DNA of 54,731 bases, taken from assembly GCA_017507285.1 (NCBI GenBank), contig JAFWBF010000155.1, forward strand, positions 1 to 54,731. The letters run 5' to 3'. Under the pieces are notes generated by a model that saw only the letters and a list, made by a program, of their open reading frames with translations, made no database searches and was not told the DNA's origin. Below are positions 11,759 to 54,725 of this stretch, one piece after another (positions within the stretch are counted from its first letter, which is position 1; the number at the start of each line of letters is the position of its first letter). The position numbers were made by a program, and so were the translations under genes. This DNA comes from Bacteroidales bacterium (GTDB lineage Bacteria > Bacteroidota > Bacteroidia > Bacteroidales > P3).

Positions 11759-11904
11759 TTCTGTTTTTCTGTTTCATGCCATATAACTGAAACATCTTTT
11801 TTTTATTGTATTCATAAGTTATATAACTTTGCATATTGTGTATTATCTAAATATGTCGACAGGACTTTATCTCACAAATACACATACCTATAGGTTTAAA
11901 AATG

Positions 11905-11970
11905 CCTCGTGATGTAGTTGTATTTTCCTCGTGATGTAAATCAATCTTCCTCGTGATGCAGATAAAAGTG
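11905..11970 (+). repeat. three 22-bp tandem units with core CCTCGTGATGYA
   Basis: cctcgtgatgta at 11905 and 11927, and cctcgtgatgca at 11949. Spacing is exactly 22 bp. The array lies 45-110 bp upstream of the recA -7 box. Confidence 0.9.
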
Positions 11971-14899: not shown

Positions 14900-17071
14900 A
14901 TGAATATAAAAGTAAAATTTCTTGCATTGGCGTTGAGTATGCTAATGCTTGTACCAGCATCGGTTAAGGCCGACGAAGGTATGTGGTTATTGTCGTTGAT
15001 AGGTAAAAACTACGACGATATGAAACAAAAAGGTTTCAAACTTACAGCCGACGATATTTATAATATCAACCAAAGCTGTATCAAAGACGCTATAGTGGGA
15101 TTGGGCAACGCCGGCTCGCCTTTCTGGCATTTCTGTACTGCCGAAATTGTGTCGGACAAGGGATTGCTTACCACCAACCACCACTGCGGTTATGGTCAGA
15201 TTCAAGAACACTCCACTGTAGAGCACGACTATCTTCGCGATGGCTTTTGGGCTTATACTATGGAAGAAGAGCTTCCCAATCCAGGCCTTACAGCTTCGAT
15301 ACTTGTACGTGTGGACGACGTTACCAAAGAAGTCCTCGCCGCCCTTAACGACGATATGACAGAAGCAGAACGAAACAAAGCTATTGCCGACGTATCGAAA
15401 AAAATATCCGACAAGGCTAAAGAAGGTACTAACTACGAAGCCACTGTAAAAAGCATGTTCAACGGAAACCAATTCTTCTTGTTTGTGCACAATATTTACA
15501 AGGACGTTCGTTTGGTAGGTGCTCCTCCTTCATCGATGGGTAAGTTCGGTGGCGATACCGACAACTGGATGTGGCCTCGCCATACTGCCGACTTCTCGAT
15601 GTTTCGTATCTACACTGCTCCTGACGGCTCGCCGGCCGAATACTCCAAGGACAATGTGCCTTTGAAACCTAAACATCACCTGCCTATCAACATTAAAGGT
15701 GTGGAAGAAAACGACTTTGCCATGATTATGGGTTTCCCCGGTACTACAAACCGTTTTGTAACTTCCTATGGCCTTGAAGAAGTGATGGACATCACCAACA
15801 AGCTACGCTACGAAATACGTACTCAAAAGATTAACGTATGGAAGGCAGCTATGAACGCCGACCAAGCTGTAAAGATTAAATACGCCTCCAAATATGCCAG
15901 CTGCTCAAACTATTGGAAATACTCCAACGAACAAAACAAGGCTCTTAAGGCTTTGAATACCATCGGCGTAAAGCAAGATATAGAACGCCGCTACAACGAA
16001 TGGGCTAAAGGTAAAGATGCTAAATATCAAAACGTACTATCGGAAATAGAAAAGATGGTAACAGCTCGCAAACCCTATATGGCTGCACGCACCTACTTGG
16101 CAGAAGGTTTGCTTAGTGGTCCTGAATTGCCGATGATGGCTTTTGGCATATATAACATGTTGTCGCAAGCCGATGAACAAACATCGGTTCAAGACAAACA
16201 AGCTATATTGGACGAAATAATGAAAGAAGTAAAAACTTTCTACAAAGATTACGACCAAACACTTGAAGAAAAGACTATTGCCACAATGTTTGAATACGTT
16301 TACAAAAACATTGAGCCTGAATATTGCCCCGAATTCCTTGCCGAAATAAACAAGAAATACAAAGGCAACTTTGAAAAATATGCTGCCGACGCTATGAAAA
16401 AATCGGTCTTCGCCAACGAAGAAACTTTTACTAAATTCATGGAAAAACCCAACTTGAAAAAGCTTGCCAAAGACCCTATGGTGGTAGCCGGTTTGGGTGC
16501 TTATGTTGAATATGTGGCTGTGGCTAAAAAAGTTAAAAATGCTGCTCCTGATATGGACAGAATGCAACGCTTGTTTGTTTATGGCTTGTTGGATATGAAC
16601 GGCAATAAACCTATCGCTCCTGATGCAAACAGCACTATCCGTTGTACTTACGGCAACTGCTTGGCCTACGAACCAAGAGATGGTGTGTATTACAGCTACT
16701 ATACTACTTTGGACGGTGTAATGGAAAAAGAAGACCCGATGAATCCCGAATTTATAGTTCCCGCCAAATTGAAAGAACTTTGGGCTGCAAAGGATTACGG
16801 TCGCTATGCCAACAAGAAGGGCGAACTGCCTACTTGTTTTATTACCAACAACGACATTACAGGCGGCAACAGCGGTAGCCCCGTTATGAATGCCGAAGGT
16901 CATTTGATAGGCTTGGCTTTCGATGGAAACAGCGAAGCCATGAGTGGCGACATTGATTTTGAAGAAAATATGCAACGTTGCATCAACCTCGACGTGCGTT
17001 ATATGCTTTTCATAATCGACAAGTTTGCAGGTGCTAAGAATCTTATCAACGAAATGACGATAATAGAATAG
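14900..17071 (+). CDS. S46-family dipeptidyl-peptidase (DPP7/DPP11 type)
   Basis: Signal peptide followed by DEGMW. Catalytic His in TNHHCG and Ser in GGNSGSPV. The 723-aa length is typical of the family. Confidence 0.9.
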   Translation: MNIKVKFLALALSMLMLVPASVKADEGMWLLSLIGKNYDDMKQKGFKLTADDIYNINQSCIKDAIVGLGNAGSPFWHFCTAEIVSDKGLLTTNHHCGYGQIQEHSTVEHDYLRDGFWAYTMEEELPNPGLTASILVRVDDVTKEVLAALNDDMTEAERNKAIADVSKKISDKAKEGTNYEATVKSMFNGNQFFLFVHNIYKDVRLVGAPPSSMGKFGGDTDNWMWPRHTADFSMFRIYTAPDGSPAEYSKDNVPLKPKHHLPINIKGVEENDFAMIMGFPGTTNRFVTSYGLEEVMDITNKLRYEIRTQKINVWKAAMNADQAVKIKYASKYASCSNYWKYSNEQNKALKALNTIGVKQDIERRYNEWAKGKDAKYQNVLSEIEKMVTARKPYMAARTYLAEGLLSGPELPMMAFGIYNMLSQADEQTSVQDKQAILDEIMKEVKTFYKDYDQTLEEKTIATMFEYVYKNIEPEYCPEFLAEINKKYKGNFEKYAADAMKKSVFANEETFTKFMEKPNLKKLAKDPMVVAGLGAYVEYVAVAKKVKNAAPDMDRMQRLFVYGLLDMNGNKPIAPDANSTIRCTYGNCLAYEPRDGVYYSYYTTLDGVMEKEDPMNPEFIVPAKLKELWAAKDYGRYANKKGELPTCFITNNDITGGNSGSPVMNAEGHLIGLAFDGNSEAMSGDIDFEENMQRCINLDVRYMLFIIDKFAGAKNLINEMTIIE

Positions 17072-17092
17072 AAACAAACGTCTATTCTTTTT

Positions 17093-17289
17093 AGGCAATT
17101 TCTAAAAATTGCTTTGCAGGTGATTTGCGGAATTTTCTTAGGAAAATTTCTACTTTCTTTTGATTGAGCATAGCGGGCTATGCGATTGAGAAAGAAATAG
17201 AAAGATTTCAAGAAAAAATGCAAAGCACGCAAAAGTTTCAAAGAACGTCCTTCTATCATTCCGAAACGTGGAATTTTTAGAAGTTGCCT
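17093..17289 (+). mobile_element. MITE-like element, copy A (short form)
   Basis: Terminal inverted repeats AGGCAATTTCTAAAAATT ... AATTTTTAGAAGTTGCCT (one mismatch). By eye it is highly similar to copies at 17820, 20044 and (inverted) 27873. It is flanked by TT/TT. Confidence 0.7.
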
Positions 17290-17299
17290 TTACTTTAAG

Positions 17300-17335: not shown

Positions 17336-17370
17336 AGTGTATGAAATCAGGAAAAATAATTTTTGTAAGC

Positions 17371-17408
17371 AGCTATTGAAAATTGCTTTGCATGTAATTT
17401 GTGAAATG
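17371..17408 (+). repeat. solo fragment resembling the MITE left end
   Basis: agctattgaaaattgctttgcatgtaatttgtgaaatg resembles the left end ggcaatttctaaaaattgctttgcaggtgatttgtga. Confidence 0.5.
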
Positions 17409-17535
17409 TTGATTTTGTTGAAGTTGCTTTCAACTATAGGCGAAAAAGAATTGCAATGGTGTTGCGACAGTTTTTCGCAACCGTTGAAATGTTTTTTCAA
17501 ATCCGTTAAACCGGTTTTTCTCCGTGCTTGAACAC

Positions 17536-17746
17536 ATAGTATCGAAAGTGCTGAAAGCATAGTATCAAAACAGTTGTATTGATACTATCAAAAGTATTGT
17601 ATATATGGTCTGCAAGTGCCACTTGCGCATCTTACAAGTGGCACTTGCATGATTAGCAAGTGCCACTTACAGACCATGATTTCAGTGGTTTCAATACTAT
17701 TATTTCAGTACTTTTGATACTATACACACAATAGTTTCGATACTAT
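17536..17746. repeat. 211-bp dyad-symmetric composite of nine phased units (3 x ATAGTATC, 3 x CAAGTGSCACTTG, 3 x GATACTAT)
   Basis: Left units are at 17536/17559/17582 (23-bp period). Central palindromes are at 17613/17635/17657 (22-bp period). Right inverted units are at 17693/17716/17739 (23-bp period). ATGGTCTG at 17605 mirrors CAGACCAT at 17670. All of these pairs are symmetric about position 17641. Confidence 0.85.
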
Positions 17747-17819
17747 CATGTCAACGGTAACGAAAAAGTGCTTCAAGCTATTTGAAAAAGTAATCCGGCG
17801 GTGGGCGAAAAATGCCTAA

Positions 17820-18095
17820 AGGCAATTTCTAAAAATTGCTTTGCAGGTGCTTTGTGAGTTTTTGCCAGAAAGATTTCTACTTTCTTTTGATTGAGCATAG
17901 CGGGCTATGCGATTGAAAAAGAAATAGAAATAGAAAGATTTCGGTAACGTTGCGATTAAGCGAGTAAAGAGCAATGCTTTAGCATTAGCTCTTTCGAGCG
18001 ATAGCAACATCGACGAAGTCAACAACGCAAAGCACGCAAAAGTTTAAAGAATATTCTACTATCATTCCGAAACGTGGAATTTTTAGAAGTTGCCT
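17820..18095 (+). mobile_element. MITE-like element, copy B (long form with internal hairpin module)
   Basis: Same termini as copy A, plus an extra internal segment (gcgattaagcgagtaaagagcaatgctttagcattagctctttcgagcg...). It is flanked by AA/AA. Confidence 0.7.
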
Positions 18096-18157: not shown

Positions 18158-19150
18158 TTATTTTGAAAGAATGTCTAATAATTCTACGTATTTTGGAGTA
18201 AGTATAATTTCGGTGCGACGATTTATAGCACGATTTTCTTTGGTGCTATTGTCTACCTTAGGCACATATTCGCCTCTTCCCGATGCGGTTATACGATTTG
18301 GGGCGATGGTAGAGTTTTTAAGTAATGCTTTCACTATGGCTGTGGCACGCATTACACTTAGATCCCAATTGTCTTTTACTTCGTTTTTGCCACGATAGGC
18401 CACATTGTCGGTATGTCCTTCCACCATTACATTTATATCAGTGTTTTCTTCCAATATCTTTGATAGCTCGGTTATGGCTTTCATACCTTCTGCCGATACT
18501 GTCCAACTACCCGAAGCAAACAGCAATTTATCTTCCATCGATACATACACTTTACCATCTTTTACCTCAATCTTCAAACCTTTGTTTTCAAACCCTACCA
18601 AAGCGTCGGCTACTTTTTGGCGTATTTCGTTTATGGCTCGTTCTTTTTCTTCGAGGGCTTTTTTCAATTCTTGTTCTTTCTCTTCCAGTTTGCGAGTAAG
18701 GTCGTTCATGTGTTCTTTGCGTTCTTTGTATTCTTTTTGTAGCACTTCCAAACGACTTTCTTTTTCGTTGAGTTCTTTTTCACGTTCTTCCAATAGTAGA
18801 CGTGCTGATGTCAAATCATTGTTTTTGCCCGTAAGCTGAGCCATATATGCAGCTGTGGTTTCTTCGTATTTCTTTTTGGCTGCAGAGTATTCAGCGTTCA
18901 ACTGTTTTAGCTCGTCGTTGAGGCGTTCGATGTCTTTTTCGTTATTGCTTATAGTGCCTCTAAGTTGCTTGTTTTGTTCCAACAAGCGTTTATTCTCGCT
19001 ATTGGTGGCTGCCAATTCGTCTTTGGTTATCGAGTATTGTTTGTTCAATCTGTCGTTTTTCGACTCCAATGCTGCATACTTTTCCATCGACACACACGAT
19101 GTCATTACTATTGATAGCACTGTTATTCCTATTAATATCTTTTTCATCAT
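18158..19150 (-). CDS. OmpA-family lipoprotein with a long N-terminal coiled coil
   Basis: Lipoprotein signal (LSIVMTSC), about 190 aa of heptad-rich E/K/L sequence, and a C-terminal OmpA_C motif set (VEGHTDN, NWDLSVMRA, NRRTEI). Confidence 0.88.
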   Translation of the reverse strand: MMKKILIGITVLSIVMTSCVSMEKYAALESKNDRLNKQYSITKDELAATNSENKRLLEQNKQLRGTISNNEKDIERLNDELKQLNAEYSAAKKKYEETTAAYMAQLTGKNNDLTSARLLLEEREKELNEKESRLEVLQKEYKERKEHMNDLTRKLEEKEQELKKALEEKERAINEIRQKVADALVGFENKGLKIEVKDGKVYVSMEDKLLFASGSWTVSAEGMKAITELSKILEENTDINVMVEGHTDNVAYRGKNEVKDNWDLSVMRATAIVKALLKNSTIAPNRITASGRGEYVPKVDNSTKENRAINRRTEIILTPKYVELLDILSK

Positions 19151-19948: not shown

Positions 19949-20043
19949 ATTGTTGTACCTCGTTTTTATTTTTTTTGCTGAGAACTTAAACGCAGAAGTT
20001 CGTTTTTTATTGTAAGGTGTGTGATGTTTCTTTAGGCAATTTC

Positions 20044-20301
20044 TAAAAATTACTTTGCAGGTGATTTGTGATTTTTTACTAGAAAGATTTCTACTTTCTT
20101 TTGATTGAGCATAGCGGGCTATGTGATTGAAAAAGAAATAGAAAGATTTCGGTAAAAAACACAAAGTTGCGATTAAGCGAGAAAGAGTAATGTTCACATT
20201 AGCTCTTTCGAGCGTTAGCAACTTCGACGAAGTCAACAACGCAAAAGTTCTTATAGAAGGATAAATACTTGCTCAGAACGTGGAATTTTTAGAAGTTGCC
20301 T
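20044..20301 (+). mobile_element. MITE-like element, copy C
   Basis: Same TIRs as copies A and B. It lies in the divergent xth / HD-phosphohydrolase intergenic region and is flanked by TT/TT. Confidence 0.7.
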
Positions 20302-20370
20302 TTAGTAAAATAGGGCAATAAAGAAGATAATTGTGCGTTATTCAACAATATTCAATAAATTATACATATA

Positions 20371-23469: not shown

Positions 23470-23489
23470 TCGGGAGGGAGATAAATATT

Positions 23490-23577
23490 CCTCTCGACAT
23501 TGTTCGAATTTCCTCGTGATGTTGTTTGGATTTTCTCCCGTCGTTGTTGAAAATCTTCGCAACATAGGTTGTCTACA
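23490..23577 (+). repeat. degenerate member of the CCTCGTGATGT 22-bp array family
   Basis: An intact core cctcgtgatgtt at 23512. Degenerate units (7-8 of 12 matches) are at 23490, 23534 and about 23555. Confidence 0.5.
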
Positions 23578-24205
23578 CTTTTTTATTCAACAATATGTTT
23601 TGAATATTGAGAGATTATTTGTTGTTCTGCAATTCATCGAAACTTCGTTGTATTTTACACTGCGAAAAAAAATCTTTGTATGTATAAAAAATAACTCTCG
23701 AATGAATAAAATTTGTCTTATCTGTAGTTTTTTTTTGCTTGTGCGATTTTTTTTGGATTTTATTCTAACAAAAAAATGTGCATAAGTGGTATTAATCAAA
23801 TTATGCTTGCTTTTATTGTCATATATTGTTGTAATATAAGATGTTTAATGCTTTATATCTTTATTGTGAATGTTTCTATGTTGTTAATTATCAATAGTAT
23901 AGTTTAATGTTTTGATGTATAGATAATTGCAAATACGGCTTGTTTATATGCTTTTGATTATTAGTAATATTTATCGGTTTTGAATAAAAAGAAGGTGAAA
24001 AAGTGAGAAAGTGTAAAAAATATTTTTTTTATTGAAAAAAAAGTATTATATTCCGCCGCTTGAGTGGTAGTTTTTATTATTTGTTTATTTATCAGATTGT
24101 TGTTGCTACTTGGGTAAAAAGAGCTATTAAAAAGGCTGTTTTCAGTACATAAAAAAAATGAATTATGCAAATTTTTTTTCAAACATGCAATTGTTTTTTT
24201 CTTTA

Positions 24206-24213
24206 TAAATTTG
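24206..24213 (+). promoter_or_regulatory. -7 promoter box (TAnnTTTG) upstream of dnaA
   Basis: TAAATTTG lies about 65 bp upstream of the ATG at 24280. Confidence 0.5.
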
Positions 24214-24279
24214 CAAACGAAAATACGAAAAGAAAAATATATCGTAATACATTTAAAATATAGATATTACTATAAAAAA

Positions 24280-25722
24280 ATGATTGCTAATAAAGATTGT
24301 AAAATAGTTTGGAATAAATGTCTTGGTGTTATACGAGATATATTGCAAAACGAACAGTTGTTCAACACTTGGTTTAGACCTATTGTTCCGTTGCAATTGG
24401 AGAATAGTGTATTGACTATCCAGGTGCCAAGTCATTACTTTTACGAGTATTTGGAAGAGCATTATATCGATCTTTTGCGAAAGACCATACGTCGTGAATT
24501 GGGTAATGGTGCACAATTGCGTTACACTATTTTGATGGAAAGAACTATTGGTTCCGGAACCAATGTGGTCTTGCCTTCCACAGGATACAAAGCCGTTCAT
24601 AATTTGCCAAAAGATATGCCTATCAACATTAATACCGAAAATGCTAAGGATTTTCCTAATCCTTTCACCATACCGGGTATTCAAAAAGTGAGAATACATT
24701 CGCAATTAAATGGTAATTACACATTGGAAAATTTTGTAGAAGGGGAGTGTAACCGATTAGCACGTTCGGCAGGGTATGCTATAGCCGAAAATCCGGGTCG
24801 CACTAGTTTTAATCCTCTTTTGATATATGGTAATGCCGGATTGGGAAAAACCCATTTGGCACATGCCATTGGTATAAAAACAAAAGAGAAATATCCCGAC
24901 AAAACAGTTTTGTATGTTACAGCCGAGCAGTTTTCGCAACAGTTTCGTGAAGCATCGGCAAATCAGACTGTCAATGACTTTATGCACTTCTATGAAATGA
25001 TAGATGTGCTTATTATTGACGACATACACTTTTGGGAAAACAGAGTGCAAAAAACTCAAGAAGCATTTTTTCACATATTCAACTACTTGCACCAAAGAGG
25101 TAAACAAATCATTATCACTACCGATAAAGCACCTGCCGATTTGGCCGGGTTGGAATCGAGATTGATTTCGCGTTTGAAGTGGGGATTGTCGGCAGATATT
25201 CAAGCACCGAACGTAGAAACACGTATGGCTATTCTTAAACAAAAGTTGGCCAACGATGGTGTGGAAATGCCTCACGAGGTGATAGAATACATTGCATATA
25301 ATATTAACACCAATGTTCGTGAACTCGAAGGAGCATTGATATCGTTGATGGCTCAATCGTCGTTAAATAAAAAGCAGATAACTATTGATTTGGCTAAACA
25401 GATGATAGACAAATTTGTGAAAAATACTGCTCGCGAAATAACCATCGATTATATACAAAAGGTAATATGCGATTATTTCAATTTGCCAATAGAAAGCATA
25501 CAGTCGCATACTCGCAAACGCGAAATAGTACAAGCTCGTCAATTGGCTATGTATTTTGCCAAAAAAATGACAAAAGCATCGTTGGCTATAATAGGTTTGC
25601 AATGTGGCAACAAAGACCATGCCACAGTATTGCACGCATGCAAAACAGTAACTAATCTTGCCGAAACCGATAAACAATTTCGTTTTTGGGTTGAAGAGTT
25701 GGAAAAGAAGTTTAATCAATAG
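24280..25722 (+). CDS. dnaA: chromosomal replication initiator DnaA
   Basis: AAA+ Walker A GNAGLGKTHL, Walker B LIIDDIH, and a C-terminal DNA-binding domain (IVQARQLAMYF, DHATVLHA). The ATG at 24280 is preferred over the TTG at 24211. Confidence 0.96.
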   Translation: MIANKDCKIVWNKCLGVIRDILQNEQLFNTWFRPIVPLQLENSVLTIQVPSHYFYEYLEEHYIDLLRKTIRRELGNGAQLRYTILMERTIGSGTNVVLPSTGYKAVHNLPKDMPININTENAKDFPNPFTIPGIQKVRIHSQLNGNYTLENFVEGECNRLARSAGYAIAENPGRTSFNPLLIYGNAGLGKTHLAHAIGIKTKEKYPDKTVLYVTAEQFSQQFREASANQTVNDFMHFYEMIDVLIIDDIHFWENRVQKTQEAFFHIFNYLHQRGKQIIITTDKAPADLAGLESRLISRLKWGLSADIQAPNVETRMAILKQKLANDGVEMPHEVIEYIAYNINTNVRELEGALISLMAQSSLNKKQITIDLAKQMIDKFVKNTAREITIDYIQKVICDYFNLPIESIQSHTRKREIVQARQLAMYFAKKMTKASLAIIGLQCGNKDHATVLHACKTVTNLAETDKQFRFWVEELEKKFNQ

Positions 25723-27872: not shown

Positions 27873-28222
27873 ACTTTCTGCAATTTCCAAAATTTCATGT
27901 TTTGGAATAATCGAAGAACCTTCTTTGAAACTTTTGCATTGTTGATTTCGTCGATGTTGCTATCGCTCGAAAGTTCTAATGCTGAGGAATTGCTCGTTAT
28001 TCACATAATCTCTACATTGTGTTTTTTTTGCATTGCGAAGTTGCTAAAGCCCGAAATAGTTAATGTAAATATTACTCTATTGCTTGCTTAATCGCAAATT
28101 TGCCGAAATCTTTCTATTTCTTTTTCAATCGCATTGTCCGCTATGCTCAATCAAAAGAAAGTAGAAATCTTTCTAGTAAAATTCCGCAAGTTACTTATTA
28201 AGTCAATTTTTAGAGATTGCCT
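27873..28222 (-). mobile_element. MITE-like element, copy D (inverted, longest, one end degenerate)
   Basis: Reverse complement of copies A-C. The intact end ...caatttttagagattgcct finishes at 28222. The other end is degenerate and starts within a few bp of the hemW stop codon (27868-27870). Confidence 0.65.
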
Positions 28223-28438
28223 AAGTAAACTAACGGCTAAGAGCTGAATCCTAAAGTTGCTTTCTTTAATATCCTAAAACTTGAATTTTCAGAAACTTAT
28301 TGCAACATCGTTTGCAGGCCATTGTCTTTGCATTAAAACAAAATTGCGTTATCGTAAGAAGTATAGTGCCGAAACTGTTATATATATACTACTCTACATA
28401 TTATATATATAGTGTTACACCTGTTATGATATAAATGT

Positions 28439-28504
28439 CCTCACGTCGTGAGGAACATTCTCTCACGTCGTGAGCGGTATCTCCTCACGACGTGAGCAAA
28501 GTAT
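28439..28504. repeat. three 22-bp units with palindromic core CCTCACGWCGTGAG
   Basis: Cores at 28439, 28461 and 28483, with exactly 22-bp spacing. Confidence 0.9.
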
Positions 28505-28517
28505 AAATAAAATATAT

Positions 28518-28573
28518 CGAATACTAATAATATAACTTATGCGATACTATATACAAAACATATCGGACACTAT
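28518..28573 (+). repeat. three phased units with core CGRWACTAT (same GATACTAT core as the right arm of the 17.6-kb element)
   Basis: cgaatacta at 28518, cgatactat at 28542 and cggacactat at 28564 (spacing 24 and 22 bp). Confidence 0.7.
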
Positions 28574-28590
28574 ATGTTTAACGCAAAGGC

Positions 28591-28634
28591 AAAAGTTTTT
28601 TGATGTAAACATAAAAGTTTTTTGATGTAAAGTA
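28591..28634 (+). repeat. two 22-bp tandem units AAAAGTTTTTTGATGTAAA
   Basis: Units at 28591-28612 and 28613-28634 differ only in their last three bases. The TGATGTAAA core resembles the CGTGATGTA family. Confidence 0.85.
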
Positions 28635-28692
28635 AAATCTCTTTAAGTCAACTTATGAATAATGCTTTGAAAGGGAGATGTGTCGTTTGTGG

Positions 28693-36588: not shown

Positions 36589-36603
36589 ATATGGTTGAAA
36601 ATA

Positions 36604-36691
36604 CATCGCGATGAATTTACAATAACCTCGTGATGTTGATACAGCAACCTCGTGATGTAGCAACAAAATCATCACGAAGGAGTTTTGTTGT
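36604..36691 (+). repeat. four 22-bp units of the CCTCGTGATGT family (outer units degenerate, the last one inverted-like)
   Basis: catcgcgatgaa at 36604, cctcgtgatgtt at 36626, cctcgtgatgta at 36648 and catcacgaagga at 36670. Spacing is exactly 22 bp. Confidence 0.85.
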
Positions 36692-45548: not shown

Positions 45549-45867
45549 TTATTTCCGGATAGGGTTTTAGATATCTATTTGAAAGAAATCAATCTTTTTG
45601 TTTTGTAGTTCTTGTTATTAGTGTCCGCTAAAAATCAATCCGATCCATGTTTGATGTTTGTTTTGTCGCACAGCCGATTATATGCTCTGTATAATGGCTT
45701 GTCAAAGATTTAATATTCTTTAGCCTTTGTAACTTAATATGTTGCAAAGGCTGAATCTTGTTTGTCGACCACCAATGATTTCTTTTCGAAAACTTAGTAG
45801 CCGATTAATTTCCTCTTTTCCCCCGCCACAAAACTTCTCTACCCCCACTATAAAACTATTTTCATGA

Positions 45868-45951
45868 CATGAAAATATACTTTCAAGACATGAAAGTATA
45901 CTTTCAAGCTTTGAAAATATACTTTCAAGGCTTGAAAATACTTTTTGAAAC
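45868..45951 (+). repeat. four 21-bp tandem units, each an imperfect palindrome TGAAA-N6-TTTCA
   Basis: Units at 45868, 45889, 45910 and 45931 (catgaaaatatactttcaaga and variants), with a degenerate unit just upstream. Confidence 0.9.
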
Positions 45952-46038
45952 GGGCAAAATATATTTTAGAAACGTCTATAAACAGTTTTTGGAACGTTCA
46001 TAGGCAGTTTGTAGGACGTGTCTTTTGGGGTTGGCTGT
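45951..46038 (+). repeat. four 22-bp phased units ending in GRAACG
   Basis: gaaacg at 45947 and 45969, ggaacg at 45991 and aggacg at 46013. Units 2 and 3 share cagttt. Confidence 0.7.
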
Positions 46039-46686: not shown

Positions 46687-49600
46687 ATGAGAAAATTTTA
46701 TTTTATTCCCTTGGTATTGTCGCTGCTATTGGCAATACCTGCCGTGGGACAGGACCGCAACAACGACGACGAAGTTGTAAAATTAGACCAACACACACGC
46801 TACAATTGTAAGCCCAACGAGGTGTTGGTGAAGTTTAACGATTATAGCGACATTAAGCTTGCCGGCAAAGGTGCCAAAACCTTTACTTCGGCAACAAAAA
46901 AAGCCAATGGTGTAAATGCAGTGTTGAAAGAATATGGTGTAAGCAGCATTGAACAGCTGTTGCCAAACTTTGTGATGCCCAAGGCACCACGAAAAGCCAA
47001 AAGCTATGGCGGACAAGACGTGGTGGAAAAAGACCTGAGCCAATTGCACCTTATAGTGCTGGACAAGGAAAGCCCCAAAAACCACTACGAGCTTATAGAA
47101 GAGCTGAAACAGCTGCCCGAGGTGGAATATGCCGAACCTAACTATATATGTTATGCCCTTGGCACTCCAAGCGAAGGCGAGATGCTTTCCGACGCTTTGA
47201 AAGCCGACCATAAATCTACCGCAAACAACCTGAACGCCAAAAGCCAGTTTGCAACCAACGACCCTTTGTATAGCACACAATGGGGCTTTGATGCCGTAGG
47301 ACTAAACCAACTGCTGCAACAACCCAAGCTGGATAGCACTGCCGCACGTAAGATTATTGCCATTATAGATACCGGCGTGGATGTGGACCACGCTGACTTA
47401 GCCGATAATATATGGACCAACACCGCCGAAGCCAACGGTGCCGCAAACCAAGACGACGACGGAAACGGACTGAAAGACGATGTGCATGGCTACGACTTTG
47501 TGAACCAAACCGGCGATATGCACGACTTTAACAGCCATGGCACACACTGTGCAGGTATAGCAGCAGCGGTGGGTGGCAATGGTATAGGTATAATAGGCGC
47601 CAACCCCGATGCACTGATAATGCCCGTAGCAGTAATGCAAAGCGATGGTACCGGCGATGCTGCAACCATTATACGCGGTATAAACTATGCAGCACAAAAC
47701 GGTGCAGATATTATAAGCATGAGTATAGGTACCTATGCCCACTCTATAGCCATGGAGCAAGCCTTGGCACAGGCATACCAAACAGCAGTGCTTGTAGCTG
47801 CTGCCGGTAATGATAGTAGAGCAATAGATCCAAGATGTTGTACTGGCTGCAATCCTACACCTGCACCGATGTATCCCGGTGCTTTCACTTTTGTATTTGG
47901 TGTACAAGCTACATACGATGGAGGTGGTTTGGCGAGTTTCTCTAATTACGATTGCGATGGGCCTTCTTATTCTCAGTACAACGAAGAACAACTGTATAAC
48001 TACGAACTATCCGCTCCCGGTGCAGGCATTATGAGCACAGTGCCCGGCGGACAATACCGCAGCTATAATGGTACATCTATGGCGTGCCCGTTGGTGGCAG
48101 GGGGTATAGCAGCTCTTTTGGATAGACGGGATTATGTATCTACAGAATTATTGTTTGGCGACCTTATCAACTATTCCACCGAGTTTATGCCTGTAAATTT
48201 TATGACAATATATAGTGCCGATAGTGTATCGCCTGCTATATTTCAGGCTGTTACAATAGAAGTAAACGATACTATGTATGGCGATGGCGGTATGTATGCC
48301 GATGCGGGAGAACATATACAAATATACCCTACCATACGCACAATGTGGGGTGCTGCCGATAGTATAGTATATTGGATAGAATACCAAGAATTTGAAGATA
48401 CTAATACATTGCAAATATTGCAGGATAGGCAAATGCTTGGCCGCCCTTTATCAAGCTACGCCAAAGCCAAAGCTCTTAATCCTATAGATATATTGGTGGA
48501 TAGCAATATAGTGGATGGACGTAAAATATGTCTTACCCTTTGTGCCACTGCCCCTAATGCCACAGATACCTTAAAGCACGATTTTACACTAAAAGTAACC
48601 AATGGAGTAAAACTATTTGGTCTTATAAACCAAAATGATACCCTTTGGCCTAATGTACAATATATTGTTACCTCAAATCTGCGTGTAGCCGATGGCGATA
48701 CATTATTTATTATGCCGGGTACTACTTTAAAAATTGGTGATGGATGCATAATATCGGGATGCATAATAGCAAACGGAAAACCTGATAGCATGATTACTTT
48801 TACCAAAACAGATCTTGGACAAGGTTGGTCCGGTTTTGGATTTAATTCTAATGTTAATGTAAGTTATTGCAAAATATCTGAAATTAATTATGTAGGAGGT
48901 CCCAATTGTAATGTACCTGTAATAAGTAGAAATACATCATATTATAATAATAATATAATGTCCTTTGATTTTAGATATGAAATCAGTCAATCGTATAAAA
49001 ATACTTTCTACAATAATGGATATGGAAGTATTTTATTATCCGGAATGTCCTATGTAAACTTTACGCACAATAATATAATTGAAAACTATAACCTCCTTTC
49101 TTATGACGATGCCTCAGTTTCTTCGTTTGAATATCCGACAATGAATTTAAATATATTTAATAATAGTCCGTATAATATTCATGTCTCCTATCAAGATTGT
49201 CTAAATAGTAACAATACATATTATGGTTCAAGTAAAGAAGAAATTATTCGTCAAGGAATTTGGGATATGTTTTATCCCGGTGCTACCACATCGTATTATG
49301 TAGATTTAAGTAATCGAGCTAATCGCCCAAGTGCCGAGGCACACGGTATAGTATGGAAGGTGGAAGTAAACGGCTATGATGCACAAGATGAGTTTGATTC
49401 CATAGCTCCACTTGGTATGGGTACTCACGAGTTTAAGGTTTACTTCAACCGTGCCATGGATACCAATGTTACTCCAATGCTGGCTATGGGTGTGCGTCCG
49501 CCATACACTCAAACTGCCATAGGCGAGAATGCCTATTGGAGTGCCGATAGCACAATATGGACTGCCCACCTTACCCTTACGGGCCGCGATGCCATAGACG

Positions 49601-50859
49601 GGCTTAACCGTATATATGTAGCCAACGCACAGGACAACGAACACTTCGAGATACCGTTCGAGAACAAACGCTTTAATGTATATGTATCTTCGGCAGGTAG
49701 TATGTCGGCAGGTTTCCAAGCCACAGCAGGCATAGGCAAGATAGACCTTGAGTGGAACGACCAAGAGGTTAATTACGAAGATTTCCTTGGTTTTAACCTT
49801 TATCGTTTCCAATACGATAGTATATTTATACCTGCTCATTACGATGAAAACTGGAACTATATAAACGATACAACAATATGGGGAGTAACCGATACAATAT
49901 TGCTAAACAAAACTTTATTGCAAGATACCGTATATACCGACTTTGATGTAGTGCCGGGCGAACGTTACTATTATTATTACAAGATACTTAGCACATCGCT
50001 AACCGAAAACTCGCCCTCAAAGCTGGTAAGCTGTGTACCTCATAGCAGCATACGCGGCGATGCCAACGGTAGCTATGCAGTAGATGTAGCCGACGTTATA
50101 ACCACCATCAACTATGTGGTGGGCAACAACCCACAACCTTTCCTATTCGATGCCGCCGACGTTAACGGCGATGGAGTTATAAACGTATTGGATGTGGTGG
50201 GTACCATAAATATAATACTACATCCCGAAAACTCCAATGCCAAAGACAGCTATGAACAACAAACCGCTATATACACTATCGAAGACGGAATACTATACAT
50301 CAACACCCCTGTGGCATTGGGCGGATTGCAGTTTACACTAAGCAACACCACTATGAACGATATAGAAGTACTATCGGCACTGAGTGGCTTTGAGCTGGTA
50401 AACACTACTGCCGATGGCAACCTTACCCTGATGGCATACAGCATGAGCGGTATGCAGATACCCGAAGGCAAACACGCACTATTGCGTATAGGCGAAAAGG
50501 AAATAAGTAATATAGTACTTAGCGATACCGAAGGCCACAATGTGATACCTTTGAAGGGTGGCGAAGTGGGCGTAACCGATATAGAATCGGTAAAAGCACA
50601 AATAATGAAAGCATTCCCAAATCCATTCGAGAAAGAAGTACAGCTTACTTTTGTAGTGGGCAGCAATAATATAAGCAATGCCCGCCTTGTGTTCACCGAT
50701 GTGATAGGCAGACAAATAGACCAACACGAAATGGATATACACACTGCAGGACAATATTCCTACACATGGAAAGCCAAAGGAATGCAACGCGGAATGTACT
50801 TTGCCACATTGTATGTAGATGGCCAAAAAGCCCATACAATGAAACTGATATTGAAATAA
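46687..50859 (+). CDS. S8 (subtilisin-family) serine peptidase, multidomain, with a dockerin-like module and a T9SS C-terminal sorting domain
   Basis: Signal peptide. Catalytic triad contexts IAIIDTGVDVDH, HGTHCAG and GTSMACP. Beta-helix-like middle region. Dockerin-type duplicated Ca-binding segment GDANGSYAVDVADV...DVNGDGVINVLDVVGTINIIL. C-terminal FPNPF...LILK is a T9SS CTD. Confidence 0.9.
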   Translation: MRKFYFIPLVLSLLLAIPAVGQDRNNDDEVVKLDQHTRYNCKPNEVLVKFNDYSDIKLAGKGAKTFTSATKKANGVNAVLKEYGVSSIEQLLPNFVMPKAPRKAKSYGGQDVVEKDLSQLHLIVLDKESPKNHYELIEELKQLPEVEYAEPNYICYALGTPSEGEMLSDALKADHKSTANNLNAKSQFATNDPLYSTQWGFDAVGLNQLLQQPKLDSTAARKIIAIIDTGVDVDHADLADNIWTNTAEANGAANQDDDGNGLKDDVHGYDFVNQTGDMHDFNSHGTHCAGIAAAVGGNGIGIIGANPDALIMPVAVMQSDGTGDAATIIRGINYAAQNGADIISMSIGTYAHSIAMEQALAQAYQTAVLVAAAGNDSRAIDPRCCTGCNPTPAPMYPGAFTFVFGVQATYDGGGLASFSNYDCDGPSYSQYNEEQLYNYELSAPGAGIMSTVPGGQYRSYNGTSMACPLVAGGIAALLDRRDYVSTELLFGDLINYSTEFMPVNFMTIYSADSVSPAIFQAVTIEVNDTMYGDGGMYADAGEHIQIYPTIRTMWGAADSIVYWIEYQEFEDTNTLQILQDRQMLGRPLSSYAKAKALNPIDILVDSNIVDGRKICLTLCATAPNATDTLKHDFTLKVTNGVKLFGLINQNDTLWPNVQYIVTSNLRVADGDTLFIMPGTTLKIGDGCIISGCIIANGKPDSMITFTKTDLGQGWSGFGFNSNVNVSYCKISEINYVGGPNCNVPVISRNTSYYNNNIMSFDFRYEISQSYKNTFYNNGYGSILLSGMSYVNFTHNNIIENYNLLSYDDASVSSFEYPTMNLNIFNNSPYNIHVSYQDCLNSNNTYYGSSKEEIIRQGIWDMFYPGATTSYYVDLSNRANRPSAEAHGIVWKVEVNGYDAQDEFDSIAPLGMGTHEFKVYFNRAMDTNVTPMLAMGVRPPYTQTAIGENAYWSADSTIWTAHLTLTGRDAIDGLNRIYVANAQDNEHFEIPFENKRFNVYVSSAGSMSAGFQATAGIGKIDLEWNDQEVNYEDFLGFNLYRFQYDSIFIPAHYDENWNYINDTTIWGVTDTILLNKTLLQDTVYTDFDVVPGERYYYYYKILSTSLTENSPSKLVSCVPHSSIRGDANGSYAVDVADVITTINYVVGNNPQPFLFDAADVNGDGVINVLDVVGTINIILHPENSNAKDSYEQQTAIYTIEDGILYINTPVALGGLQFTLSNTTMNDIEVLSALSGFELVNTTADGNLTLMAYSMSGMQIPEGKHALLRIGEKEISNIVLSDTEGHNVIPLKGGEVGVTDIESVKAQIMKAFPNPFEKEVQLTFVVGSNNISNARLVFTDVIGRQIDQHEMDIHTAGQYSYTWKAKGMQRGMYFATLYVDGQKAHTMKLILK

Positions 50860-50882: not shown

Positions 50883-53800
50883 ATGAAAAAGCTCCTTATA
50901 ACACTTATATTGCTTGGTGCAATATACGGTGGCAGCCGTGCCGATAATGTGATGACCTTGAGTGAGGCTCAAGGTCGTCCGGCCGACACGCTGACGTTTT
51001 CCTTGTCGCTGTCTAACAGCGACAGCCCCGTGGCACTGCAAGCCATGGTGCCGCTACATGGGCAGTTCGGCTACGTGGAAGGTTCGTGTACCTTGTCATC
51101 ACGTGCCAATGGTCATGCCCTCACTGCAATGGTACTCGACGATACCCTTAGGATATATTCCTACTCACTATCGTTGCTACCATACAATGGCAACAGTGGC
51201 GAGATATTAAGTTTTCAACTTATTGCCCGTCAAGAGCCGGCAACATATACCATGCCACTGTGCAATGCCATACTCTCCGACGCATCGGGCAATGCACTGC
51301 CACTGCAAACCACAGCAGGCACTGCCACTATATTGGCACCCAAGGTGTCGGTATCTACCTCGGCTATCAACTATGGACATATACCCATACTATCGACCTA
51401 CACCCGCACTGTAACCGTCAGCAATATAGGCAATCAGCCACTGGCTATAAACGGAATAACCACCGGCGATGCCACACTTACGCATACACCGGCAACGGCA
51501 AATATCGAAGCCGGCAGTACGCATACTTTCACCATTACCTATAATCCGCTATATGCCGGAGCCATCGAGCGACGTGCCATAGTAAATACCAATGCCAAGG
51601 TAGGCGACAGCATTATAATGATAACCGCCGACCCATTTGCTGTAAACGAGTTGAGACCACTGAATGCCACGGGCTATACCGACAGTATAGTGCGCATACA
51701 GCTGCGTATGAACAATATGGACAGCATAGTGGGATTGCAAACATCCATCAAACTACCCTCGTCGCTTATATATGTACCCGGTAGCTTTGCCGTGGATAGC
51801 AGTCGCAGCCAAAACCATATAGCCACGGCAGGTTTGCAAGGCGACACCCTTACAATGATGATTGTAAGTACCGAAAACAAGCCTCTGCGTGGTGGCGATG
51901 GTGTGGTGGCATACTTTGATGTGCAGTTGCACGGATATGGATCGTTTACATTAAACCTTCGCAACACTGTACTTGCCGATACGGCAGAACGCAATGGACT
52001 GTCGGCTGTATATACAGGTAGAGTAAGCATTCAAAGTCCGCGTATAGTGTGCAATGCCTCGTTGGATATGGGTAGCAGTGCTGTTACCGGGCTGCCCACA
52101 TCGCAATATGTGGTAAGCAATACGGGCAATGCACCGCTAATTATAGACCGTGTGTTGTTTATGGATCCACACTTCGAGCTGGTAGATAGTCTGCCCATAG
52201 TTATAAGCAGCAACTATAGCCGTAGCATAAATATCCGCTACACCGGAACAGTAGAGGGCAACTATTCCACCACCATGCAGATATATAGCAACGACCCCAA
52301 TAACGAACTGAAGAATGTGGCACTAAGCTGCCACCGCTACGAGCCTAACAGCCTATATATGCAAGCCGATAGTGTGCCTACTTTTGCCGACGCAACCGTA
52401 GAATTTGTATTGGAAAACTACTCCGATATTACCGCGGTGCAGATGGATTTCACCTATCCACATCGCCATTATGTGGTAAATGCTTCGGACTTTGCTTTGA
52501 CCAACCGTGCTTCGGGACATACTGCCAGTGTGGCACGGCTCAACGATTCTACTTTCCGTGTGCTATTCCTATCGCTACAAAATAGTGCTTTTGTTGGCAA
52601 CGATGGTATTGTGGGATACGTAACATTGCACCCAACAGACCCAACCGGTGTTGGTAGCTATACTGCTAATATCAGCAATGTATTGGTAGCCGACCAAGAT
52701 GGAACAAACAAACTTACTACACTCGACAGCATAGTACATTGGAATACGTTTGTACAATCATTTACTATATCGGGCAATACCAACAACGACAGATGTAGTA
52801 TTGCAGGATTGGGAACATACAACTCGGGTAGCACCGTAACGCTTACAGCTAATGCCGGTACCAATTGTAGTTTCCTACGTTGGGAAAACGGCGACACGGC
52901 TACTACACGTACCATTACTGTAATATCCGACACAACGGTATATGCCTATTTTATGCAGACAGACAGTATTATGTTTAACGATGTATTTTGCCAAGGAACG
53001 GTATATAACTATGGTGGTACGACCATAAATACTGCCGGTACCTATTACCGCCAAAGCGGCACAGAATATTTTGATACCGTATATACATTATCCCTTTCGA
53101 TGATAGCTAAAGTATATGACACCATCGAGAGAGTGATAGGCGATAATGATACCTATACCTTTAATGGAACAGTATTGTCTCAAACCGGATATTACAACGA
53201 TACACTTGTGGCTTCGCTTACAGGTTGCGACAGCATTGTTACCCTACACCTAATGGTATTACCTGTAATTACCAACTATATATACGATACCATTTGTCAA
53301 GGCAACACCTACAACCAATACGGATTCAGCGTATCAGAGGCAGGGTTGTATGGCGATACTTTGCAAACATCGCTTGGTATAGATTCCATAGTATTTCTGT
53401 CATTGGCTGTAATGCCAAATTACACTATGGCTACACACGACACTATATGTGCCGGCAATAGCTATACATTTGGAGGCAACACCTACACCCAATCGGGAAC
53501 ATACGCCGATACACTTGCATCTATATTTGGTTGCGACAGTATAGTGGTGCTAAACCTTGTGGTAAATAGTGGAACCGGTAGTTTTGACAATATTGTTGCC
53601 TGCGATAGTTACACATGGATAGATGGTAACACCTATACAGAAAGTAACAACACTGCTACATATACATTGACCAACGCAGCAGGTTGCGACAGCGTTATAA
53701 CTCTAAACCTTACTATCAACAGAAGTACTACTTACACAGATATAGTTACAGCTTGCGATAGTTACACATGGATAGATGGTAACACCTATACTGCCGGTAA

Positions 53801-54725
53801 TAATACTGCTACATATACATTGACCAATGTAGCAGGTTGCGATAGTGTAGTAACCCTAAACCTTACTATCAACCAATCTACAACAGGTAGCGATGTGCAA
53901 GTGGTATGTGATAGCTTTACTTGGATAGACGGTGTTACTTATACCGAGAGCACCAACACACCTACCTATACACTTACAGCAGCCAATGGTTGCGACAGTG
54001 TGATAACACTCAATCTTACTGTCAACCATAGCATAGCTGTAACCGATACGGTAGTAGCATGTGGTAGCTACACATGGATAGACGGTAACACCTATACACA
54101 ATCTATCAATACTCCTACTTACACATTTACATCAGTAAGTGGCTGCGACAGTGTGGTAACTCTCAACCTCACCATCAACCCAAATGCAACCGGCATAGAT
54201 ACACAAGTATCTTGCGACAGCTATACATGGATAGATGGTGTTACATATACCGAGAGTACCAACACACCTACTTATACACTTACAGCAGCCAATGGTTGCG
54301 ACAGTGTGGTAACGCTCAATCTTACTATCAATCTTTCGGTACACGATACCATAGTGGATACCGCCATAAATGAATACACATGGAACGGTGCTACCTATAC
54401 CGAAAGTGGAGTATATATGTACGAAGGTGTAACCACTGCCGGTTGCGATAGTATAGTTACACTTATGCTTACAATACAAGCCATTGGCATAGAAGGTATA
54501 GATATATTAAGCGAACTTACATTCTATCCAAACCCAACAAGCGGTACTATCACTTTCAACCGCACGGATATAAATAAGGTTGAGGTGCTTGATGCCGTGG
54601 GTAGAACAGTGGCTGTATACGAAAACGCACATATAATAGATATTTCCAAGCTAACCAAAGGTTATTATACCATGCGTATAACCACCGCCGAGGGCGTGGC
54701 TGTTCGCAAGGTGGTGCGTAACTAA
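50883..54725 (+). CDS. T9SS cargo surface protein: 3 cohesin-like modules alternating with Ig-like domains, an InlB B-repeat-like domain, about 10 two-cysteine repeats, and a T9SS CTD
   Basis: Signal peptide MKKLLITLILLGAIYGGSRA. Repeats of the type CDSYTWIDGNTYTESNNTATYTLTNAAGCDSVITLNLTIN. The C-terminus FYPNPTSGTITFN...VVRN is a T9SS CTD. The cohesin-like call is by sequence pattern only. Confidence 0.8.
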   Translation: MKKLLITLILLGAIYGGSRADNVMTLSEAQGRPADTLTFSLSLSNSDSPVALQAMVPLHGQFGYVEGSCTLSSRANGHALTAMVLDDTLRIYSYSLSLLPYNGNSGEILSFQLIARQEPATYTMPLCNAILSDASGNALPLQTTAGTATILAPKVSVSTSAINYGHIPILSTYTRTVTVSNIGNQPLAINGITTGDATLTHTPATANIEAGSTHTFTITYNPLYAGAIERRAIVNTNAKVGDSIIMITADPFAVNELRPLNATGYTDSIVRIQLRMNNMDSIVGLQTSIKLPSSLIYVPGSFAVDSSRSQNHIATAGLQGDTLTMMIVSTENKPLRGGDGVVAYFDVQLHGYGSFTLNLRNTVLADTAERNGLSAVYTGRVSIQSPRIVCNASLDMGSSAVTGLPTSQYVVSNTGNAPLIIDRVLFMDPHFELVDSLPIVISSNYSRSINIRYTGTVEGNYSTTMQIYSNDPNNELKNVALSCHRYEPNSLYMQADSVPTFADATVEFVLENYSDITAVQMDFTYPHRHYVVNASDFALTNRASGHTASVARLNDSTFRVLFLSLQNSAFVGNDGIVGYVTLHPTDPTGVGSYTANISNVLVADQDGTNKLTTLDSIVHWNTFVQSFTISGNTNNDRCSIAGLGTYNSGSTVTLTANAGTNCSFLRWENGDTATTRTITVISDTTVYAYFMQTDSIMFNDVFCQGTVYNYGGTTINTAGTYYRQSGTEYFDTVYTLSLSMIAKVYDTIERVIGDNDTYTFNGTVLSQTGYYNDTLVASLTGCDSIVTLHLMVLPVITNYIYDTICQGNTYNQYGFSVSEAGLYGDTLQTSLGIDSIVFLSLAVMPNYTMATHDTICAGNSYTFGGNTYTQSGTYADTLASIFGCDSIVVLNLVVNSGTGSFDNIVACDSYTWIDGNTYTESNNTATYTLTNAAGCDSVITLNLTINRSTTYTDIVTACDSYTWIDGNTYTAGNNTATYTLTNVAGCDSVVTLNLTINQSTTGSDVQVVCDSFTWIDGVTYTESTNTPTYTLTAANGCDSVITLNLTVNHSIAVTDTVVACGSYTWIDGNTYTQSINTPTYTFTSVSGCDSVVTLNLTINPNATGIDTQVSCDSYTWIDGVTYTESTNTPTYTLTAANGCDSVVTLNLTINLSVHDTIVDTAINEYTWNGATYTESGVYMYEGVTTAGCDSIVTLMLTIQAIGIEGIDILSELTFYPNPTSGTITFNRTDINKVEVLDAVGRTVAVYENAHIIDISKLTKGYYTMRITTAEGVAVRKVVRN
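53601..54480 (+). repeat. in-frame 153-bp (51-codon) tandem repeats, about 6 well-conserved units
   Basis: The first Cys codon of successive units is at 53601, 53754, 53907, 54060 and 54213, an exact 153-bp period. A divergent unit starts at 54366. Four more diverged units lie upstream, from about 52989. Confidence 0.9.

Follow-up and report, generated by a model that had tools for sequence, protein, structure and literature searches.

The arrays closest in layout to the element described here are centromere or operator arrays to which a protein from the neighbouring operon binds, such as parC/ParR of plasmid R1 and the omega-protein heptad arrays of pSM19035. In both, phased direct and inverted short repeats lie upstream of an operon for a small dimeric DNA-binding protein, and the repeat sequence varies between related systems. 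Comparable arrangements are known from the tripartite operators (OR1-3) of lambdoid phages and the four palindromic iterons of ori-lambda, to which dimers bind cooperatively, and from the iteron-type plasmid origins of pSC101, R6K and RK2. Repetitive extragenic palindromic units and bacterial interspersed mosaic elements (REP/BIME) are high-copy and dispersed, and HU-binding nucleoid-associated RNAs derive from them in E. coli. Here, we describe a 211-bp dyad element at positions 17536-17746 of a 54,731-nt stretch of Bacteroidales DNA (contig JAFWBF010000155.1; the window), which together with its flanks we call E1, and a second element, E2, at 28333-28650. Both belong to a family of arrays that lie upstream of HU-HIG operons in uncultured gut and rumen Bacteroidales. 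No earlier description of these arrays was found in the literature, and the family is apparently undescribed.

The layout of E1 is real and lies far beyond chance. The original prediction, made from the window alone, had proposed three units, three palindromes and three inverted units in an exact dyad arrangement, and this was confirmed position by position with small corrections. The left-arm unit ATAGTATC is found at 17536 and 17559, followed after the same 23-bp period by ATACTATC at 17582, in which the centre base is flipped (other strains have G; 17585 C>G). The palindromes hold their predicted positions and 22-bp period but are not identical copies: CAAGTGCCACTTG at 17613 is followed by CAAGTGGCACTTG at 17635, with G rather than C at the centre, and by CAAGTGCCACTTA at 17657, whose final A is a mismatch that reads G in other strains (17669 A>G). 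The right-arm units stand at 17693, 17716 and 17739 as predicted, the first (AATACTAT) with one mismatch and the other two as GATACTAT. The brackets proposed at 17605 and 17670 are also present (Table 1); in other array types the bracket position is occupied by ATGATGTG, ATGGTTCG or ATAGTCC. The periods are thus 23, 22 and 23 bp, and the 105-nt arms (17536-17640 and 17642-17746) are complementary at 71%. The computed dyad centre is 17641.0, in agreement with the common midpoint proposed, and remains the same over +-130 nt. Allowing up to one mismatch, CAAGTGSCACTTG occurs three times in the window against 0.06 expected, a number reached in 0 of 100 shuffles, while GATACTAT occurs eight times against 2.4 expected, with five of the eight inside the 211 bp. 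Two of the proposed sizes were too small. The arm core is conserved, but the conserved arm unit is longer than 8 bp (ATAGTATCRAAA....TG), and the regular part of the element exceeds 211 bp, with 22-23-bp units on either side; the first left-flank unit is complementary to 17747-17770 at 83%.

The recurrence of the arm core noted at 28518-28573 is genuine and corresponds to the right arm of E2, a complete second element with three arm units per side. Its arms and palindromes span 28363-28573, and its palindrome (CTCACGWCGTGAG at 28440, 28462 and 28484, exactly 22 bp apart; dyad centre 28468.0) differs from that of E1. The E1 palindrome occurs only here in the window, and the arm core recurs in E2 and in the arrays of relatives. 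In addition, one metagenome contig of 773 bp, whose depth is that of the organism itself, has outer parts that match E2 with 211 unlike letters between them, which points to a third member of the family in this genome.

HU-HIG is a large, rapidly diversifying HU-like family, found only in Bacteroidota, for which a comparative study reports no conserved gene partners and guesses at a role in conflicts with invading DNA (PMC5499826). The link to this family came from a metagenome scan with the arm pattern, which identified L086 (L082-L115 denote metagenome contigs or loci). This contig carries a homologue of E1 that is 84% identical over ~430 bp including the flanks and that ends ~95 bp before three tandem genes, all of them PF18291 HU-HIG. 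Homologues of the first gene were searched, and 25 contigs encoding eight of them (49-99% identity) were fetched. All 25 carry 22-bp flank units, three 23-bp arm units, three to six 22-bp palindromes, three inverted arm units, 22-bp flank units and then the ATG, usually of an operon of three HU-HIG paralogues. E1 has this family layout in full (flank units, three arm units at 23 bp, two to six palindromes at 22 bp, three inverted arm units, flank units), and E2 shares homology with the arrays that precede the HU-HIG operons of L100-L102.

Eight lineage types share the one architecture, each with its own palindrome (Table 1), and in the 1.74 Mb of fetched DNA each palindrome type is confined to its own element. 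The central three palindrome bases are always G-N-C, and in all types neighbouring centres lie exactly 22 bp apart. Most types have the arm consensus ATAGT.....AA..TGCTGAA in common, and the three unrelated repeat classes (flank, arm and palindrome) have a common 22-23-bp period. Between related types the palindromes change symmetrically in both half-sites and in all copies (CTCACG-W-CGTGAG versus CTAACG-T-CGTTAG; GTG-S-CAC versus TTG-S-CAA). The HU-HIG proteins are HU-fold DNA binders (PF18291), for which no solved structure was found by sequence. The three genes are old paralogues with 20-24% mutual identity, each orthologous across types, the first being the most conserved. Types 1 and 5 have the same arms and different palindromes; their beta-arm regions are identical for genes 1 and 3, and gene 2 differs. 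This is a weak hint that the palindromes may belong to the gene 2 product, and with so few types the palindrome-protein correlation yields no more than this hint.

The gene sets around the HU-HIG operons and their arrays (L090-L093, L100-L102, L106-L110 and L114) differ between close strains and often contain defence genes, namely BsoBI-, DpnI- and Eco47II-type restriction-modification, DUF1016/YhcG, a Schlafen-like ATPase, a helicase with AAA and phospholipase D-type (PLD) nuclease genes, a nucleotidyltransferase pair, KilA-N and Fic. No PADLOC model matches the three HU-HIG proteins or the upstream 213-aa gene. Tandem ATAGTATCAAAA arrays with a 23-bp period were also seen in L082-L085 and L087-L089, with unrelated neighbours (DprA-like and phosphoribosyltransferase-like genes or, downstream of the array, an AAA ATPase gene) and with no HU-HIG gene nearby.

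Table 1. Features of E1 and E2 in the window and palindromes of the array family.
Feature	Position	Strand	Sequence or remark
Promoter-like boxes	17387-17417	+	TTTG-N19-TGATTTTG; within the solo 5' part of R, immediately to the left of the conserved module
Start of conserved module	17428-17467	+	Inverted pair GCGAAAAA...TTTTTCGC; inverted repeat, L086 alignment begins here
Left flank, three 22-bp units	17468-17533	+	CAGTTTTTCGCAACCGTTGAAA, TGTTTTTTCAAATCCGTTAAAC, CGGTTTTTCTCCGTGCTTGAAC; conserved in L086
Left arm, three 23-bp units	17536-17604	+	ATAGTATCRAAA....TG; from sequence and repeat analysis
Left bracket	17605-17612	+	ATGGTCTG; has the appearance of a degenerate fourth arm core
Three 13-bp palindromes	17613-17669	.	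CAAGTG-S-CACTTG; centres 17619, 17641 and 17663, spacing exactly 22 bp
Right bracket	17670-17677	+	CAGACCAT; mirror of 17605-17612
Right arm, three 23-bp units	17678-17746	-	Left-arm units inverted; from sequence and repeat analysis
Right flank	17747-17819	+	CGAAAAAGTGCTTCAAGCTATTT (17761), GAAAAAGTAATCCGGCGGTGGGC (17784), truncated GAAAAATGCCTAA (17807); 22-23-bp units 17761-17819
Copy of repeat R, like a miniature inverted-repeat transposable element (MITE)	17820-18088	+	Terminal inverted repeat AGGCAAyTTCTAAAAATT; insertion that abuts E1 on the right, not part of E1
E2, architecture as E1	28333-28650	+	Left arm 28363-28431, right arm 28505-28573; flank repeats AAAAGTTTTTTGATGTAAA at 28591 and 28613
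Palindrome, window E1			CAAGTG-S-CACTTG
Palindrome, L086 and L090-L093 (type 1)			CRAGTG-S-CACTCG
Palindrome, L106-L110			CAAAGTTG-S-CAACTTTG
Palindrome, window E2			CTCACG-W-CGTGAG
Palindrome, L100-L102			CTAACG-T-CGTTAG
Palindrome, L097 and L099			CCTAATG-S-CATTAGG
Palindrome, L094			GAAAAAGGCTTTTTC
Palindrome, L111			CTTTCG-S-CGAAAG
Palindrome, L113-L115			GCTTATG-S-CATAAGC

The likeness of the HU-HIG arrays to parC/ParR and omega-site arrays suggests, by analogy, cooperative coating and autoregulation. An array upstream of the gene for its (predicted) binding protein is seen in the relatives with HU-HIG genes and not in the window. The arrays differ from those systems in the absence of a linked partition nucleoside triphosphatase (NTPase), in an HU fold rather than a ribbon-helix-helix, and in having three site classes, three paralogues and a chromosomal locus, and it is the HU-HIG proteins that would bind. 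With the lambdoid operators and ori-lambda they share three or four palindromes about two helical turns apart and a specificity that differs between relatives; unlike these, they have no adjacent helix-turn-helix repressor or initiator gene, carry additional arm and flank arrays and are not in phage. REP/BIME elements likewise consist of palindromic units in alternating orientation and variable number, with a possible link of the HU family to RNA or cruciform-prone repeats, whereas each HU-HIG array palindrome type is confined to one locus. A dispersed palindrome of the REP/BIME type was rejected for E1, which is not high-copy, unlike the neighbouring repeat R.

We tentatively read these arrays as helically phased DNA platforms for the linked HU-HIG proteins, serving autoregulation or a higher-order complex, an explanation that we regard as possible and somewhat short of probable. 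On this reading, E1 is a stranded representative of the long non-coding stretch found in front of HU-HIG operons in one clade of uncultured Bacteroidales from gut and rumen. This stretch is an ordered, dyad-symmetric array of ~16-20 short sites in three classes (flank, arm and palindrome), spaced by 22-23 bp, or about two helix turns. The small dimeric HU-family proteins encoded directly downstream would bind these sites side by side on DNA, the conserved arm units being bound by the most conserved paralogue and the lineage-specific palindromes by a faster-evolving one. The bound proteins would build a wrapped, symmetric nucleoprotein complex that would set operon expression through autoregulation, perhaps by obstructing transcription that comes in from a promoter further upstream, and that may also mark the locus. 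The palindrome block evolves via gain and loss of whole 22-bp units and hairpin-templated inversions.

At the level of sequence, the operon linkage, the type-specific palindromes, the 22-bp spacing and the HU fold of the predicted binders all point to a DNA platform, as do three further features. Mirror partners among the arm units are no more alike than non-partners, the symmetry arising from repeated recognition-type units, so that the original preference for protein-recognition sites over a simple RNA hairpin is reasonable. In the second palindrome of the type 1 strains the right half, GGCACTC, is kept and the left half is found in four variants, which is consistent with half-site conservation. 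Moreover, the imperfect palindrome pairs comprise 10 G.T, 6 A.C and 15 others, with no wobble bias. Several findings weigh against the DNA platform. The element is covered by RNA contigs and is therefore transcribed at least sometimes, and no canonical Bacteroidetes promoter was consistently found between the element and the ATG. L094 (type 4) has all site classes but one HU-HIG gene only, and the orphan copies in the window have no operon yet keep perfect palindromes. Divergence between close strains is about equal in the element (1.6-2%) and at synonymous sites (0.7-5%). Finally, Burroughs et al. 2017 considered HU-HIG proteins unlikely to be sequence-specific transcription factors (PMC5499826).

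E1 was found in every strain sampled, from at least six studies, and the presence and absence between strains that a transposon derivative would give was not seen. Between metagenome samples (X1, X2, X15, X17, X20 and X25), the palindrome block differs by exact 22-bp units. E1 has two palindromes in X25 (a 22-bp deletion at 17620), three in the window and X1, and four in X15, X17 and X20 (22 bp inserted behind 17634); in E2 the number is three or four, with a 22-bp unit inserted in X15 and X17. Centre bases flip between strains in a palindrome (17663 C>G) and in the arm core mentioned above (17585), and symmetry is restored by variants at 17669 and 17687-17688. X25 also carries variants at core positions 17584, 17589 and 17613. 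In the type 1 strains, the 9-bp spacer between palindromes reads CACGATTTG in L090 and L092 and the reverse complement in L086, L091 and L093. Unit slippage and hairpin-templated strand switching would be expected to give such changes, which tell of the mode of mutation, not of function. The palindrome number shifts jointly in E1 (17613-17669) and E2 (28440-28496), from 3+3 in the window, X1 and X2 to 4+4 in X15 and X17; this involves two lineages only and may be chance. An inverton of the Bacteroidales kind was considered and rejected, as no whole-segment inversion joint was among those listed in metagenome contigs and the 9-bp spacer inversion was the only one seen.

No HU-HIG gene is present in the window, and E1 and E2 are both orphans; in the family, the HU-HIG gene starts ~100 bp after the right arm. 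The homology of E1 to L086 runs from 17428 to ~17815-17819 and ends ~29 nt before the ATG position, and that of E2 to L100 is lost ~28 nt before the ATG position. The same boundary, ~28-30 nt before the ATG (~17815 in E1, ~28650 in E2), is found at the ends of the L086 RNA contigs (433-446) and at the start of the first mRNA contig (439), which suggests a discrete start or processing site. A 4.5-kb contig of X25 with a window-like E1 reads ...GGCGAAAAATGCCTAAAAT, fitting the sequence after R in the window, and an L086-like operon at >=80% identity is absent from it. The copy of R at 17820 seems to have been inserted later and is apparently absent in X25, a reading that is consistent, not proven, because only two letters beyond the junction are visible in the contig. 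With the operon gone from both copies, these are relics, or else they serve in trans as sites for HU-HIG proteins whose genes lie elsewhere. Trans use is possible because the same metagenomes contain contigs of HU-HIG operons as well as of the third element, the latter at the organism's own depth.

The main and serious rival to a DNA platform is that the element acts as RNA, either as a long structured 5' leader or as a separate non-coding RNA, in which the arms would pair and the palindromes would form G-N-C triloop hairpins or pair with their neighbours; its role would be post-transcriptional control of the operon, or binding or titration of the HU-HIG proteins. We consider this unlikely, despite RNA contigs from three wastewater RNA-seq runs of a single study that cover L086 154-446 and leave the coding region bare, a further contig on L086 18-232 from another run, and contigs of an L094-type relative that extend into the gene from a point at least 183 nt upstream of the right arm. 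These contigs are unstranded, have a depth of 3-12 and could reflect DNA carry-over; those from the gut metatranscriptomes that were examined cover only the genes and begin at 439 (L086). Variable palindrome stems around an invariant G-N-C centre would suit an RNA, as would the boundary shared by the orphans and the RNA contigs, and promoter-like boxes occur left of the element both in the window (17387-17417) and in three types (~-575 to -596). In the window we take these boxes, from the Bacteroidetes -33/-7 consensus, to be a putative promoter. Folding is strong (z -9.0 and -9.5 on the two strands), but fold energy does not discriminate between DNA and RNA because it is strongly negative on both. 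Against an RNA, the arms show no partner-specific complementarity, a test that is weakened by homogenised repeats, and as RNA the units of the two arms would not be the same motif. Two of the four type 1 palindromes have A.C mismatches on the sense strand, wobble bias is lacking overall, one palindrome is conserved in its right half only, and 13 bp permit only a 5-bp stem with a triloop. A known RNA family was rejected: in Rfam 15 neither the window nor eight related loci gave a gathering-score match, and matches at E<=1 were at chance level only. A different objection is that the window copies are relics with no present function, their regularity kept by unequal crossing-over and hairpin-templated correction. 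We find this doubtful rather than improbable, and since it is limited to the two window copies and does not concern the family, it is compatible with a DNA platform or with any rival and its likelihood does not add to theirs. It gains from the missing HU-HIG gene, from the MITE at the right edge of E1 together with an allele that lacks the operon and apparently the MITE as well, from the X25 variants at core positions, from near-neutral divergence between close strains, and from the kinds of variation seen, namely gain or loss of whole units, flipped centres and one inverted spacer. It is less easily reconciled with a full layout kept in two independent orphans, whose palindromes are at least as perfect as operon-linked ones, with the presence of E1 in all strains sampled, and with the prospect of trans use.

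The other explanations fare worse. A recombination or integration platform, where a recombinase or HU-assisted complex would swap defence genes at a hotspot with the palindromes as crossover sites, could account for the variable genes on either side of element and operon, the gain and loss of units, the spacer inversion and the common boundary at which both orphans stop. It is nevertheless improbable, as no recombinase or integrase gene was found in any locus, the variable genes are not bounded by repeat copies, and a recombinase could not invert spacers as short as 9 bp, slippage and template switching being enough to explain the changes. The original prediction had also allowed for a recombination or partition-type site, which is conceivable; the centromere- or operator-like layout agrees with this and the lack of a linked partition NTPase or recombinase does not. 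A replication origin, or the partition (centromere) site of an element that has integrated or was once extrachromosomal, is very improbable. E1 has the tandem ~22-bp repeats of iteron origins, with direct repeats mixed with partial palindromes, dnaA lies 6.5 kb away, and the relatives carry their array upstream of small DNA-binding protein genes as parC/ParR-type loci do, but there is no rep or other initiator gene, no ParA, ParM or TubZ in any locus, no DnaA-box cluster and no GC-skew switch, and the depth is that of single-copy chromosomal DNA. A chromosomal origin was rejected despite the nearby dnaA, there being no DnaA-box cluster and no skew switch, and a phage or plasmid origin because the arm and palindrome patterns gave 0 matches in IMG/VR and the array is absent from distant HU-HIG loci. 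No HU-HIG relatives of this clade were found in IMG/VR, and neither the plasmid-collection matches nor the distant HU-HIG genes on Bacteroides and Parabacteroides records had such an array. Least credible is the non-autonomous transposon that had been proposed from the resemblance of the arms to Mu, Tn7 and Tn402 ends, with three transposase sites of ~22 bp, inverted, near each end. Three inverted units per side are indeed present, and a TG (17529-17530) and a CA (17752-17753) lie symmetrically about the centre, but they are not termini, conservation with L086 extending from 17428 to ~17815, well past both. The absence of a target-site duplication was noted correctly (flanks GTGCT and ACGGT). 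Unlike transposon ends, the sites are not terminal, the depth is single-copy with no dispersed copies, homology to relatives runs ~100 bp past both arms, and the position before HU-HIG operons is fixed in eight lineages. No linked transposase, which the original prediction had suggested looking for, was found across the window and the 25 loci linked to HU-HIG, and there is no occurrence in viral contigs. Transposon ends or a MITE were therefore rejected for E1, which is single-copy, has no target duplication and has homology beyond its 'ends'.

E1 lies within a 1.1-kb gap between a convergent S46 peptidase gene (14900-17071) and an OmpA-family gene (18158-19150, minus strand), with recA upstream and dnaA downstream. 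It is flanked by copies of repeat R (17090-17290 and that at 17820), a repeat of ~200-280 bp with further copies at 20024-20310 and 27889-28210 (inverted) and a solo 5' part at 17357-17417. In four gut metagenomes the depth of R is 50-250x that of unique sequence, which identifies it as a high-copy MITE-like element; the segment 17296-17799, which holds E1, has single-copy depth, save for partial extra matches up to ~fourfold in one bin. The piece at 17357-17410 is 74% identical to the starts of R and also lies left of the element in L090 and L092, and the 5' part of R is presumably promoter-like in the Bacteroidetes sense. The closest species-representative genomes to the S46 peptidase are rumen Bacteroidales metagenome-assembled genomes, at 65-66% protein identity; an exact-protein look-up of this peptidase gave no match, and 80 S46-peptidase loci of other Bacteroidota (1.4 Mb) had essentially no arrays with a 22-bp period of the kind seen in the window.

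Other regular features occur elsewhere in the window. Four intergenic arrays (1108-1190, 11897-11959, 23482-23544 and 36596-36680) consist of three or four copies of CCTCGTGATG(T) or its complement with an exact 22-bp period, one of them just upstream of recA and one just after rlmN. A further phased array at 45857-46010, in a 1.1-kb gap upstream of a 1390-aa open reading frame (ORF), has four 21-bp units with the palindrome TTTCAAGnnnTGAAA, then three 22-bp units TTTTnGAAACG, and no arm units. The dnaA gene (24211-25722) is preceded by a 740-bp AT-rich gap (23470-24210); with neither a consensus DnaA-box cluster nor a GC-skew switch found in the window, the origin was not located. The tRNA-Leu(aag) that ARAGORN places at 46818-46892 falls inside the mechanical ORF 46687-50859, so that the start assigned to the ORF or the tRNA prediction must be in error. 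Finally, 153-bp (51-aa) tandem coding repeats occupy 53220-54475 in a long last ORF that is cut by the window end.

For the HU-HIG family, the arrays provide a concrete candidate target that is lineage-specific and whose half-sites change symmetrically and in step with the linked operon, and through them the target question becomes directly testable. In a broader proposal, which we hold to be distinctly unlikely, the arrays would be the cognate nucleic-acid targets of HU-HIG proteins; operon and array would form a module with private specificity that builds a phased complex on DNA, or on its RNA, at hotspots of defence-gene turnover, and the orphans would be anchor or decoy sites acting in trans. 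The arrays show unusually clearly how a palindrome array evolves, by whole-unit gain and loss, centre flips and loop inversions, and they mark loci with a turnover of defence genes, restriction-modification among them. In genome annotation, some of the long intergenic gaps of gut and rumen Bacteroidales that seem 'empty' are explained by these arrays.

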